NCBI GenBank assembly: GCA_965222615.1 | Contig: CBDCUI010000008.1 | Span: 96,001-160,000 of the forward strand | DNA: 64,000 nt | Reading direction: 5' to 3' | Source of the DNA: Gammaproteobacteria bacterium | GTDB lineage: Bacteria; Pseudomonadota; Gammaproteobacteria; UBA4575 | Shown here: in pieces, positions 13,533 through 16,315 of the stretch | Layout: each line of letters starts with the position of its first letter | How positions within the stretch are numbered: position 1 is the first letter of the stretch | The notes under the pieces: generated by a model | What the model was told of the DNA's origin: nothing | Database searches by the model: none | What the model saw: the letters and a program-made list of their open reading frames with translations, nothing else | Position numbers and translations under genes: made by a program

Positions 13533-14204
13533 TTATATATCCTCCATAATGGCATTCAGTGTTTTAGCCTGATCAATCATTGGTCCTAATGAAGAGATGT
13601 CGGGTACTGACTGTACTCGGTTTTGTATTTGATTTGCTTCGGCCAAGGTATGGTACAAACGTTCAGAATCTTGCTGTGCTAAATCCTGTACCGAATCTAT
13701 TCCTGCATATACCATCAACTCAGAAATCTGCCCTTCTATTCCAGAGATACGCATGAGGTCACACATACTGGCCCATTTGCGTACTACAAAATCTTCTATA
13801 CCTACTTTTTCTGCCACTTGAATGCGTCCCTCTAGATTGCAGCATTTTTCCAATAATTCTTGGGTAGTGGTTATGCCCATTTCACGTATCGATTTGCCAT
13901 AAGACGCACCGATACCTTCTACCTCTTCGATGGGATAAGCTATTGATTCTGTTGGGGTTATTACTTCAGCTAGTGGTTCTGCAATGGTCGCTGTTGTAAT
14001 GGGTGTTTCGGCTGTTGTGCTAGAGAGCTTGCGTTGTAGATCGTCACGTTCACTTTCAATTTTAGCTAACTTGGCCTGCCAACCTTTATCTAATTCAGCA
14101 AGCTCATCTCGGTAGAATAATTTTTTTAACAACCAACCTACAATTGCGCCAATGAGTGCTGCGAGCAATAAACAAAACCACATTTGTTGAATTAAATAAC
14201 TCAT
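13533..14204 (-). CDS. Membrane-anchored DUF4332 (HhH) domain protein
   Basis: N-terminal TM; IEEVEGIG..Y, LLE, W...CDLMRISGI...SEL...AGIDSV.DLA; overlaps the upstream gene by 4 nt. Confidence 0.8.
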   Translation of the reverse strand: MSYLIQQMWFCLLLAALIGAIVGWLLKKLFYRDELAELDKGWQAKLAKIESERDDLQRKLSSTTAETPITTATIAEPLAEVITPTESIAYPIEEVEGIGASYGKSIREMGITTTQELLEKCCNLEGRIQVAEKVGIEDFVVRKWASMCDLMRISGIEGQISELMVYAGIDSVQDLAQQDSERLYHTLAEANQIQNRVQSVPDISSLGPMIDQAKTLNAIMEDI

Positions 14205-15049
14205 GGTTGAAGCCCCTTTACTTTAAATTCAATTCTTCTATTTTTTGCTAAGCCTTCTTCAGTTTCATTGTCAGCAATCGGTTGCGATTCACCATAACCT
14301 ACTGCAGTTAATTGAGAGGAATCGATGCCTTTGCTTACTAGATAAGATAATACTGCGGATGCACGTTCTTGGCTTAGGCGTAGATTGTATTCGTCCTTAC
14401 CCCGTGAGTCTGTATGCCCACCAATCTCGATTTCAGCATCTGGGCATTGTTTAGTAACTTCTACTAAGTCATTGAGCAAATTGTAACTAGATGTCTCAAT
14501 CTCAGCGCTATTGGTCGCAAAGTGAATTTTATTTGTGCTAAGTAATAAGTCGAAGTCTTGTTGGCAAGTGTATTCTGGTAACGGCTCTAATTTAGGTGTC
14601 GCCAGTACCGTTTCTGGTTGTTCAATTGGCAACTCTTCAACTGTTGAGGGCTCTTCTATTATTGGTAGTTCTTCAACAGTAGGAGGTTCTTCTATTATGG
14701 GTGGTTCCTCACTAGTCGTCATAGGTTCTGGTTGTTCGATTACTTCTTCGTCAGGATCTGACTTCGGTATTACTACAACGAGTCGGTTATTAACAGTACG
14801 TACACCATATACATTCTTAACTAATTTCCCCGCCCGTTTTCTTATCTTGTTACTTGCGACTTTACCGGTGAGTGCTACATCGCGGCCATCGATAGATACA
14901 TTTATATCTTTAAGACCTTCTATCGCCAGCGATGCAACCGTGCGTGTTTGAACGTCGTTTTGAATTTCGGTGCGATGTTGATAGATGCAAAAATAACCAA
15001 GAATTGCTAGTAGAGTTAAACCTAGCAATATGATTAAACCTTTACTCAT
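14201..15049 (-). CDS. BON + OmpA-like peptidoglycan-binding membrane protein
   Basis: TM, BON (GRDVALTG..V.GVRTVNN), Glu/Pro linker, OmpA C-terminal domain (GHTDSRG...N..LSQERA..V; NRRIEF). Confidence 0.9.
   Translation of the reverse strand: MSKGLIILLGLTLLAILGYFCIYQHRTEIQNDVQTRTVASLAIEGLKDINVSIDGRDVALTGKVASNKIRKRAGKLVKNVYGVRTVNNRLVVVIPKSDPDEEVIEQPEPMTTSEEPPIIEEPPTVEELPIIEEPSTVEELPIEQPETVLATPKLEPLPEYTCQQDFDLLLSTNKIHFATNSAEIETSSYNLLNDLVEVTKQCPDAEIEIGGHTDSRGKDEYNLRLSQERASAVLSYLVSKGIDSSQLTAVGYGESQPIADNETEEGLAKNRRIEFKVKGLQP
14622..14710 (-). repeat. Degenerate 18/36-bp coding tandem repeat (EEPPII/EEPPTV/EELPII/EEPSTV/EELPIE)
   Basis: Hexapeptide periodicity in the linker between the BON and OmpA domains. 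Confidence 0.75.
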
Positions 15050-15273: not shown

Positions 15274-15489
15274 TTAAGTTAGTCTTTCGTAATTAGGAAA
15301 TGTACAAAATAGAATATCTTCTCCAAAATATACTCGTGGAAATATGCTTTGGGGAAGCCACTCTTTTTTCATCTTAACTTTTTCCATTCTACGTTTCGAC
15401 TTATTATTTTTTCGATGTACACAACCTTTAAATAGCAAAGGGTGATTGTATAATGGATTACGTCTGCACAATTTTGCTTTTTTACTCAT
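15274..15489 (-). CDS. Small basic protein, candidate ArfA-like ribosome-rescue factor
   Basis: AGGAGG RBS; 71 aa, K/R-rich core NPLYNHPLLFKG.VHRK; long hairpin within the 3' CDS (15311-15364). Function is inferred. Confidence 0.65.
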   Translation of the reverse strand: MSKKAKLCRRNPLYNHPLLFKGCVHRKNNKSKRRMEKVKMKKEWLPQSIFPRVYFGEDILFCTFPNYERLT

Positions 15490-15505
15490 ATTGACCTCCT
15501 ATCTG

Positions 15506-15742
15506 TTAACTAATTTGAGTTACTTTGCTAAAAGTACCTTCTTGAATAGCTTTATTGATGTATTCCATAAAAAAGATGGTTTTATCCTCTGCTTTCAATA
15601 CATTATCTTCGATATCATTCAATGGCACAGGAAAACTGTATAGCATTTCACTATAAGGTACAGGCACAGCATAGTACGCTACACCTTGCTGGTAACGTAA
15701 AAATTTTGCTTTAGCATTACTGATTATATTGTTAGCTTTCAT
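15506..15742 (-). CDS. Small hypothetical protein (FPVP...ED motif family), paralog 2
   Basis: TAGGTGA RBS; shares F...G..[WY]Y...FPVP...ED....YI with the adjacent ORF. Confidence 0.8.
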   Translation of the reverse strand: MKANNIISNAKAKFLRYQQGVAYYAVPVPYSEMLYSFPVPLNDIEDNVLKAEDKTIFFMEYINKAIQEGTFSKVTQIS

Positions 15743-15780: not shown

Positions 15781-15999
15781 TTATGCTGCCTTAGCTTTAT
15801 CCAGTTTTTCGGCGTGAGCTTTGATGTATGGATAAAAGCGTTTAGCGCGGTCTTCATTTAAGAAAACCGACTGCCCTGATCCCTTAATTGGTACAGGAAA
15901 TTTAAAACCGCTATCCGTGCGGTACCACAATTTTCCAGACAAGAAAAACATGAAGCGCACGCTTTCATTGTCATTTATGATTTTTTCTAAATTTTTCAT
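15781..15999 (-). CDS. Small hypothetical protein (FPVP...ED motif family), paralog 1
   Basis: TAGGTGA RBS; GKLWYRTDSGFKFPVP...FLNEDRA..FY.YI. Confidence 0.82.
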   Translation of the reverse strand: MKNLEKIINDNESVRFMFFLSGKLWYRTDSGFKFPVPIKGSGQSVFLNEDRAKRFYPYIKAHAEKLDKAKAA

Positions 16000-16081
16000 G
16001 TTGTCACCTATTTAAAAATTGTCCTCTAGTTGGGTCTGTTATATGTGATAAATCGCTAATCTAATAAAATCATTGGGCATG

Positions 16082-16115
16082 AAAAAACCCCGGTGCTCAC
16101 GCTACCGGGGTTTTT
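16082..16115 (-). terminator. Attenuator terminator (3:4 hairpin) in the 5' leader
   Basis: mRNA AAAAACCCCGGU-AGCGUGAGC-ACCGGGGUUUUUU lies upstream of the small-gene operon, not after a known gene. Confidence 0.85.
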
Positions 16116-16151
16116 GATTTAGTCCGGAAGGTGAGCTACGACCTTCCGGTA
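16082..16151 (-). promoter_or_regulatory. Transcription attenuator with mutually exclusive hairpins
   Basis: 1:2 CCGGAAGGU/ACCUUCCGG; 2:3 GCUCACCUUCCGG pairs with CCGGUAGCGUGAGC; 3:4 is the terminator. Confidence 0.75.
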
Positions 16152-16165
16152 TATGGAAAGTCTCG

Positions 16166-16315
16166 CTACAGGATGCTTTTTACCTGCCCAAATATATGCC
16201 TTAGTAAATAGATCGGGCTACAGAGCATCTTGCTACTTGTGCGCATAAACACCACGGTGTTAGCCCATGATAGGGCCCCTGTGCGCAATCTTGTTTTTTG
16301 CATAAAAATATTCAT
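16166..16315 (-). CDS. Putative leader peptide, 49 aa (MNIFMQKTRLRTGALSWANTVVFMRTSSKMLCSPIYLLRHIFGQVKSIL)
   Basis: Manually translated ORF between the promoter and the attenuator; ends in UAG-C about 15 nt before segment 1; alternative ATG at 16303. Confidence 0.5.
   Translation of the reverse strand: MNIFMQKTRLRTGALSWANTVVFMRTSSKMLCSPIYLLRHIFGQVKSIL

Follow-up and report, generated by a model that had tools for sequence, protein, structure and literature searches.

The window analysed here is a stretch of 64,000 nucleotides from a gammaproteobacterial genome, and on its minus strand lies an open reading frame (15274–15489) that begins with ATG, translates into 71 amino acids and ends with TAA. 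We propose that the functional product comprises only approximately the first 43–51 of these residues. The frame is preceded by a Shine-Dalgarno sequence, AGGAGG (15495–15500, minus strand), located five bases 5' of the ATG, and a GGAG-type site is found before the start codon in 10 relatives. Small open reading frames upstream of the gene are conserved only within its taxonomic family; elsewhere, synteny reveals no linkage between them and the gene. Among sequencing runs, the locus was found in five DNA runs and in no RNA run.

The encoded protein has two dissimilar parts. Residues 1–43 are strongly basic, with lysine or arginine at 10 of the 18 positions from 26 to 43 in the translation, whereas the final 28 residues are hydrophobic and aromatic. 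A sequence-only reading of this stretch had described a K/R-rich core and a compositionally different tail, and the composition agrees with this description. Within the basic portion, codons R10–L19 (15433–15462, minus strand) carry a conserved N-terminal motif, R-N-x-L-x-x-x-P-L-L, in which P17 is invariant in 46 as well as in 135 aligned members of the protein family. By analogy with known factors, this motif is proposed to contact a release factor and the decoding centre. Codons G22–E43 (15361–15426, minus strand) contain a G-x-x-H motif and then a K/R-rich tail, with K21, G22, H25 and R33 conserved, and this segment is proposed to act as a probe of the mRNA channel. AlphaFold2 predicts a helix at residues 29–55 and coil for the P-L-L motif, with a mean pLDDT of 75 and a pLDDT of 96 over residues 31–40. 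By composition and predicted helix alone, the C-terminal segment is positively charged and could fill the mRNA tunnel.

A long RNA hairpin (15311–15364, minus strand) starts at the third base of codon K42 and ends at the second base of codon L60. The 5' arm (15340–15364) ends with F50, the loop (15336–15339) has the sequence CCAC, and the 3' arm (15311–15335) begins with R52; the arms are defined by folding and covariation, and the loop by folding and the alignment of relatives. The structure has a 4-nt loop and a stem of 25 positions, of which 22 pair and three are 1×1 mismatches; this is the imperfect stem of about 22 bp that had been read from the letters at these same coordinates. The short U run that had been noted past the stem was also found, as the U-rich stretch AUUUUGU directly 3' of it. 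Together with non-conserved hydrophobic tail codons and the stop codon, this stretch occupies 15274–15310 (minus strand), where no constraint is seen at the protein level and where the tails of relatives vary in both length and sequence. This hairpin, with its three mismatches, is among the weakest of the family.

The hairpin alone has a folding energy of −16.7 kcal/mol. Placed in a 91-nt context the value is −20.3 kcal/mol (z = −3.29), a stability that none of 200 dinucleotide shuffles reached. A consensus terminator scan, which requires short GC-rich stems, gives no call at the hairpin, and Rfam has no match for the hairpin region and two weak sub-threshold matches elsewhere. Since the surrounding 3-kb locus contains 301 other windows of 70 nt, 20 of which are at least as stable as the hairpin, the single copy is unexceptional in this AT-rich locus, and the case therefore rests on comparison.

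The protein family and its hairpin

No Pfam or NCBIfam model matches the 71-aa protein even at E ≤ 10. A word-indexed search returned 8 close proteins, a genome search found the gene in 11 of 41 relatives, all of one taxonomic family, and a scan of species genomes yielded 34 loci, all in Gammaproteobacteria MAGs with labels that include Thiotrichales, Thiodiazotropha, Chromatiales, Methylococcales, Thiohalomonas, Competibacteraceae and Nevskiales. When a profile of 46 members was compared with 90% clusters, 548 proteins were recovered, every named one of which is 'hypothetical' or 'uncharacterized', and a Pfam domain is absent from all 120 matches listed of the 548. The same profile matches at least 1260 representatives of 50%-identity clusters, 288 of them at E ≤ 1e-10. 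None of 135 family representatives matches ArfA (at E ≤ 0.01), KGG, DUF7230 or another meaningful Pfam or NCBIfam model, and profile searches of all PDB chains gave chance-level rows only (Dp-1, E 1.8; eL15, E 7.4). The nearest clusters in the ESM Atlas are 'hypothetical'. An identity with DUF7230 (ESM Atlas, score 0.81) was considered and rejected: no member matches, and PF23876, a model that gave no match in the controls either, was found in 0 of 5 family-positive genomes. We found no description of the family in the open-access texts, which come without supplementary files such as the ArfT-like list of PMC6514570. A system of this kind is known, and the family itself is new to the databases that were searched.

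Four positions, P17, K21, H25 and R33, do not vary throughout the broad family, and R10, N11, L18 and G22 hardly do. Invariant columns in the close clade run from R10 through E43, with none beyond. The amino-acid sequence is kept across AT-rich and GC-rich genomes that use different codons. A distant branch of the family carries acidic extensions.

The hairpin is conserved and covarying. Each locus of the K-K-E-W-type subfamily was folded independently (41 distinct loci, with L081 and L088, which have no anchor motif, and L086, which is too short, left out). In 36 of the 41, a helix of 16–33 bp begins 22.7–27.7 codons past the invariant P17, a five-codon window just past the conserved core. 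As a control, 492 random 240-nt segments of the same loci contained a helix of at least 16 pairs in 81 cases, and in the equivalent 16-nt window in 4. The automatic longest-helix picker took another helix in L011, L035 and L051. Inspection outside the automatic count showed the hairpin to be present at the conserved position in L035 and L051 also; L011 has a short hairpin only, and none is clear in L008 or L055.

From clade to clade the stem sequences are unrelated, being AU-rich here and GC-rich elsewhere, and the amino acids that they encode are unrelated too. Among 12 close relatives, 86.3% of cells pair, compared with 39–59% when the partner is slid. Both sides have changed in 9 of the 25 pairs, and the observed covariation score was reached by 0 of 500 shuffles. 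In L009, E-W-L-P-Q...V-Y-F-G-E is replaced by E-H-Y-Q-Q...V-C-F-A-D and the stem is still perfect. The register of the stem foot is fixed to the protein core and not to the stop codon. Ranked by MFE, the hairpin window comes first within its locus in only 16 of the 41 loci; this ranking is a weak test in AT-rich genomes, and position and covariation were therefore used instead. The acidic-tailed distant branch has an intrinsic-terminator-like site within the coding sequence in 8 of 19 loci, and further such sites were also seen. Termination of this sort is the second route that has been reported for arfA and brfA (PMC8012679). A stem-loop or terminator within the coding sequence, around or upstream of the stop codon, is kept among homologs, as in ArfA-type regulation.

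When 12 close relatives were compared in 66 pairs, the differences per codon per pair separated the regions of the gene. The core (R10–E43) shows 0.318 synonymous and 0.235 non-synonymous differences, the hairpin codons 0.095 and 0.426, and the tail 0.047 and 0.916. Because of these rates, we place the end of protein constraint at the hairpin foot and take the constraint within the hairpin to act on nucleotides. Purifying selection acts on the core as a protein, and the tail is free of protein-level constraint. That homologs should keep the hairpin and not the tail sequence had been named beforehand as a check, and this is the pattern found in the 36 of 41 loci and in the non-synonymous rate of the tail. 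Of 36 loci, 12 have the stop codon within the hairpin and 24 have it further on, and in L008 and L010, one of which belongs to the same genus, the protein ends naturally at 51 aa. Judged from these sequences, the tail is dispensable.

Comparison with ArfA and other rescue systems

The stem-loop of arfA leads to premature termination or RNase III cleavage, and hence to a non-stop mRNA (PMC8012679). ArfA is a factor of E. coli and of other Gamma- and Betaproteobacteria. ArfA genes were retrieved with the Pfam model (PF03889), and 23 loci entered the hairpin analysis. These have a long stem-loop past the conserved core; the stop codon falls in the loop or 3' arm at 9 of them and past the whole hairpin at 10. 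Measured from the F25-equivalent, the hairpin foot lies at a median distance of 24.0 codons; four loci in which the picker chose another helix (L103, L107, L109 and L110) are retained in this median and in the range. For the new family, the distance from the L19-equivalent to the hairpin foot has a median of 23.3 codons and a range of 20.7–25.7 (n = 36 of 41, with L008, L011, L035, L051 and L055 left out). Compared at the sequence level, the gene layout matches that of real arfA genes, and the earlier description of the hairpin as arfA-like and intragenic is upheld by this agreement with the 23 loci.

The two kinds of gene are alike in having an open reading frame of about 70 aa with a core of about 45–55 aa, and a hydrophobic P-L-[F/L] motif followed by a K/R-rich tail, which is predicted to be helical here. 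Both also have a long stem-loop within the coding sequence about 24 codons past P-L-[F/L], and a stop codon that falls in the loop or else follows a tail that is not conserved and is partly hydrophobic. Each is a stand-alone gene in genomes with tmRNA, SmpB, RF2 and RNase III. In contrast, the new family lacks the K-G-K-G-S-Y block that is invariant in 25 ArfA sequences, as had been remarked of the KGKGS motif from this one protein. It has an invariant set of its own (P17, K21, H25 and R33), with K-G-[G/C]-x-H elsewhere in the layout, and its N-terminal region before the motif is shorter.

When full alignments were compared with ArfA by hhalign, the probability was 0.25% (E 0.24) over 7 columns. 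The use of 247 trimmed cores gave 2.1% (E 0.023) over the same 7 columns, and global mode gave nothing. The sole columns paired are x-x-H-P-L-L-[F/R] with x-x-D-P-L-F-R of ArfA. A 'loose echo' of ArfA had been heard in the protein, and HPLL/DPLF is indeed the one stretch that hhalign pairs; however, the pairing is not significant by either E value. In the close clade L13, P17, L18 and L19 do not vary, and their spacing is that of L19, P23, L24 and F25 in E. coli ArfA. Of those ArfA residues, P23 packs against A1492/A1493, and the other three make up the patch through which the RF2 switch loop is bound at W319 (PMC5378476). The pocket for F25 consists of V198 and F217 (PMC6299226). The RF2 of this genome retains the equivalents of V198, F217 and W319, and its RF1 has A, A and S there. 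A complex prediction with the genome's RF2 and residues 1–50 scored 0.01 against a mark of 0.32 and is given no weight in either direction.

The P-L-L parallel stands at the motif level and permits deep homology and convergence alike. Homology to ArfA is not detectable, and by sequence the protein is not an ArfA. Because the hhalign pairing with ArfA is not significant, 'independently evolved or too diverged to tell' would fit better than 'divergent ArfA'. The sequence-only reading had offered a divergent or independently evolved factor, of which the former, taken as a divergent ArfA, fits less and the latter, widened to include divergence too great to tell, is retained.

The systems known in the literature that we drew upon are ArfA, ArfB, ArfT, BrfA, PrfH and RQC. 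BrfA of Bacillus subtilis is encoded by a 72-aa open reading frame with a rho-independent terminator before the stop codon, its active protein is made from non-stop mRNA, and it is described as repressed by trans-translation and dependent on RF2 (PMC8012679). Terminator-like sites within the coding sequence are found in the acidic-tailed branch of the new family as well. BrfA differs in being confined to the Bacillus group, and it is set beside the new family by description. The PDB presumably includes a BrfA chain, and the PDB profile searches made here found nothing related.

ArfT of Francisella tularensis is described as basic and very small, and as bringing release factors to non-stop ribosomes (PMC6299226). 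Its K-K-G-G-S-T-N-K-K (PMC6299226) resembles the [R/K]-K-G-G-x-H-x-K of the new family, ArfT being known here by description. In contrast, the ArfT mRNA is reportedly not controlled by truncation, according to the account in PMC6299226. Burroughs and Aravind assigned ArfT to a wider GsiB/LEA-type family (PMC6514570). The KGG model (PF10685) gave 0 matches in this genome at E ≤ 0.1, with E. coli, B. subtilis and Caulobacter as positive controls, and no family member matches it. We take PF10685 to be the GsiB-type repeat of PMC6514570, with which references 102–104 of PMC6514570 appear consistent.

The C-terminal tails of ArfB and SmpB are described as positively charged and helical and as sensing the empty mRNA channel (PMC6514570, PMC6299226), and the basic helix predicted here at residues 29–55 would resemble them. 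However, the tail here comes without a catalytic or tRNA-mimic domain, and a release-factor partner would be needed. An ArfB-type RF-1/GGQ catalytic domain was looked for, and the 71-aa protein has no Pfam match of any kind.

Rescue genes and their distribution

The genome is 99.8% complete and contains SmpB, tmRNA (231 bits), RF1, RF2 and RNase III (rnc). Pfam ArfA was found in 0 of 41 related genomes, including this one, with a positive control in E. coli. The two RF-1 domains of this genome are RF1 and RF2, and a third is not found. An ArfA or ArfB-like gene was found in 0 of 25 genomes of the same taxonomic family. By these searches, this genome and its relatives are without any known backup factor. 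All Proteobacteria studied so far, as PMC11633108 reports, need either trans-translation or a backup factor.

The gene is present in 23 of 56 genomes of the taxonomic family, and its presence follows genera, being found in all 15 genomes of one and in 0 of 13 of another. The other 33 genomes lack the gene, and the 14 of these that were also checked for ArfA and ArfB lack both. Because these 14 have neither the gene nor ArfA nor ArfB, the lineage is not strictly in need of a backup factor.

A class-wide sample of 400 genomes was drawn evenly by taxonomic family. It contains the new family in 32 genomes and ArfA in 5, with none shared. An ArfA-rich order of 81 genomes has ArfA in 22 and the new family in 10, and its 31 taxonomic families have ArfA in 11 and the new family in 6, again with none shared. 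ArfA and the new family thus occur together in 0 of the 481 genome entries searched for both. This exclusivity is weak (p ~0.03 by genome and ~0.05 by taxonomic family), with relatives that are not independent. No anti-correlation with ArfB-like genes was found, at least three RF-1 domains being present in 13 of 32 family-positive genomes versus 200 of 400 overall (hand count), and ArfA co-occurs with ArfB-like genes in 3 of 5. Four genomes flagged as unpublished (G063, G165, G319 and G331) enter only the denominators and the 200 of 400; none is ArfA- or family-positive. The new family may be commoner than ArfA among environmental Gammaproteobacteria, as suggested by the 32 versus 5 of 400 genomes and the at least 1260 clusters.

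Proposed function and alternative explanations

By analogy with ArfA, we consider it fairly probable that the gene encodes a backup ('alternative') rescue factor that is made from non-stop mRNA and is both active and controlled as ArfA is. The long stem-loop just past the conserved core would be cut by RNase III or, in other clades of the family, would act as a transcription terminator, and the cut or terminated message would be left without a stop codon. While tmRNA–SmpB is working, trans-translation would rescue the ribosomes at the broken end, and the peptide would be tagged and degraded. When trans-translation is saturated, a truncated peptide of approximately 43–51 residues would build up. 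Its K/R-rich helical tail (residues ~26–45) would probe the empty mRNA channel of a non-stop ribosome, and the conserved L-x-x-x-P-L-L-x-K-G-x-x-H would be positioned at the decoding centre and recruit a release factor, most likely RF2. The release factor would then hydrolyse the peptidyl-tRNA without a stop codon. We infer the truncation of the mRNA, control by tmRNA, binding to the ribosome, and the recruitment and identity of the release factor. Cleavage by RNase III is favoured in this clade because the genome has rnc, the stems are AU-rich and 20–30 bp long, and the scan calls no terminator. Transcription termination is favoured for the acidic-tailed branch.

Three other explanations bear on the same observations. 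The protein could be a small basic ribosome- or RNA-binding protein with another job, such as in stress, hibernation or assembly, that keeps the gating by a truncated message and does not recruit a release factor. A K/R-rich protein with a long predicted helix fits many RNA binders, homology to any rescue factor was not found, the acidic extensions of the distant branch are unlike ArfA, and ArfB-like genes accompany the family at the background rate. Nevertheless, we regard this explanation as unlikely. In the literature that we drew upon, the rescue factors ArfA and BrfA are the only proteins said to come from messages that are obligately non-stop (PMC8012679); the motif and the hairpin are spaced as in ArfA to within one codon; the conserved P-L-L aligns with the ArfA contact residues P23-L24-F25; and ArfA and this family occur together in 0 of the genomes searched.

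Were the full-length 71-aa protein the product, the hairpin would be an ordinary mRNA element, such as a 3' stabilising stem, a terminator, or a site of RNase III turnover or autoregulation, with no link to tmRNA. Stem-loops at 3' ends are common in short genes, there is a U-rich stretch 3' of this hairpin, and the stop codon falls within the hairpin in 12 of 36 loci, so that a terminator overlapping the stop is possible there. However, in the other 24 loci the frame crosses the hairpin into tails of variable length, with a non-synonymous rate of 0.916 per codon per pair. Furthermore, the stem foot is fixed relative to the core and not to the stop, and stems of 16–33 bp that are AU-rich in this clade are unlike the short GC-rich stems that the terminator scan requires, and the scan makes no call at this site. 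An ordinary element is, in our judgement, decidedly improbable. It is harder still to credit that the locus encodes no protein and is a structured RNA with an incidental open reading frame, an explanation to which the shortness of the gene, the lack of any family annotation and the strong RNA structure would lend themselves. Genomes rich in AT and genomes rich in GC encode the conserved amino acids with different codons, the core has more synonymous than non-synonymous differences, a Shine-Dalgarno sequence stands at the right distance in 10 relatives, at least 1260 representative clusters match the protein profile, and Rfam has no match for the region. We regard that explanation as very remote.

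Returning to the rescue factor made from non-stop mRNA, a further possibility, which we put forward only tentatively and do not expect to prove the case, is that the family is an independent invention. It would then add to ArfA, ArfT and BrfA a fourth lineage, unrelated to them, of rescue peptides that recruit release factors, and would have converged on autoregulation through non-stop mRNA, a P-L-[L/F] contact and a spacing of 24 codons between the motif and the break. On the same tentative footing, its acidic-tailed branch may combine this tmRNA-gated expression with a different ribosome-directed activity.

If the gene does encode such a rescue factor, the family would fill part of the gap in backup factors, and it would be a recurrent design to express a backup factor from an mRNA whose own translation has to be rescued. 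It would also suggest a genomic rule by which rescue factors may be recognised, namely a small, basic, conserved core, a covarying in-frame hairpin at a fixed distance from it, and an unconstrained tail. The finding would likewise bear on the bypass of trans-translation inhibitors in bacteria that seemingly have no backup.

Distant and shortened members of the focal family

Some relatives of the focal protein, the 71-aa candidate ribosome-rescue factor, form a distant branch in other Gammaproteobacteria (loci L071-L091 and L119-L125) with an R-N-P-V-A-R-S-P-L-L-R-K-G-G-A-H type of sequence and acidic C-terminal extensions. A short, GC-rich hairpin followed by a U-run is located within the coding sequence in eight of 19 loci of this branch, and more examples are found beyond that scan. 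The acidic-tailed branch may represent a subfamily with a distinct function, employing the same non-stop logic as proposed for the focal gene, where the message ends inside the coding sequence before the stop codon.

Two loci encode focal-family proteins that are naturally only 51 aa long, L010 (genome G001, from the same genus as the window) and L008 (genome G016). The hairpin is kept in L010 and carries a TAA codon in its loop; in L008 a TGA is present at the matching position and the hairpin is degraded. Here the regulation may have been lost.

The record for locus L030, which carries the gene, is titled as an uncultured Mycobacterium MAG, and the gene there has the same neighbours as in the gammaproteobacterial family; the Mycobacterium bin label is probably wrong. 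Shortly after the end of the gene in L051, approximately 49 codons past the invariant proline (P17) used as the anchor, there is a GC-rich palindrome of 33 pairs that contains repeated units and looks like a REP-type element.

Neighbours of the focal gene

Directly upstream of the focal gene is a small ORF of 78 aa (window 15506-15742, minus strand), which is preceded by another of 72 aa (window 15781-15999, minus strand). Comparison of neighbourhoods shows that their order is kept across the taxonomic family of the host genome, where the 72-aa ORF has 78-96% identity, whereas neither was found next to distant focal-family members. Neither has a match in Pfam or NCBIfam. They appear to be paralogues of one another; both carry an F-x-F-P-V-P pattern and, later, F/Y-x-x-Y-I-x-K-A. 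At window 16079-16182 (minus strand) the His operon leader model of Rfam gives a weak match that stays below threshold (25.5 bits, where the gathering score is 49; E 0.13) and is probably due to chance.

Downstream, and kept there in relatives, is a gene for a 282-aa OmpA-C-like protein (window 14201-15049, minus strand). The protein has a membrane segment at its N terminus and a linker that is long, acidic and made of proline/glutamate-rich repeats.

An ArfB-like protein below the model cut-off

Locus L118 (G029:C25) encodes a stand-alone RF-1/GGQ protein of 143 aa with a basic tail. The NCBIfam model for ArfB has a cut-off of 100 bits, and this protein reaches just 46.6; it is an ArfB-like variant under the curated threshold. 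Surveys of ArfB that rely on this model may therefore undercount.
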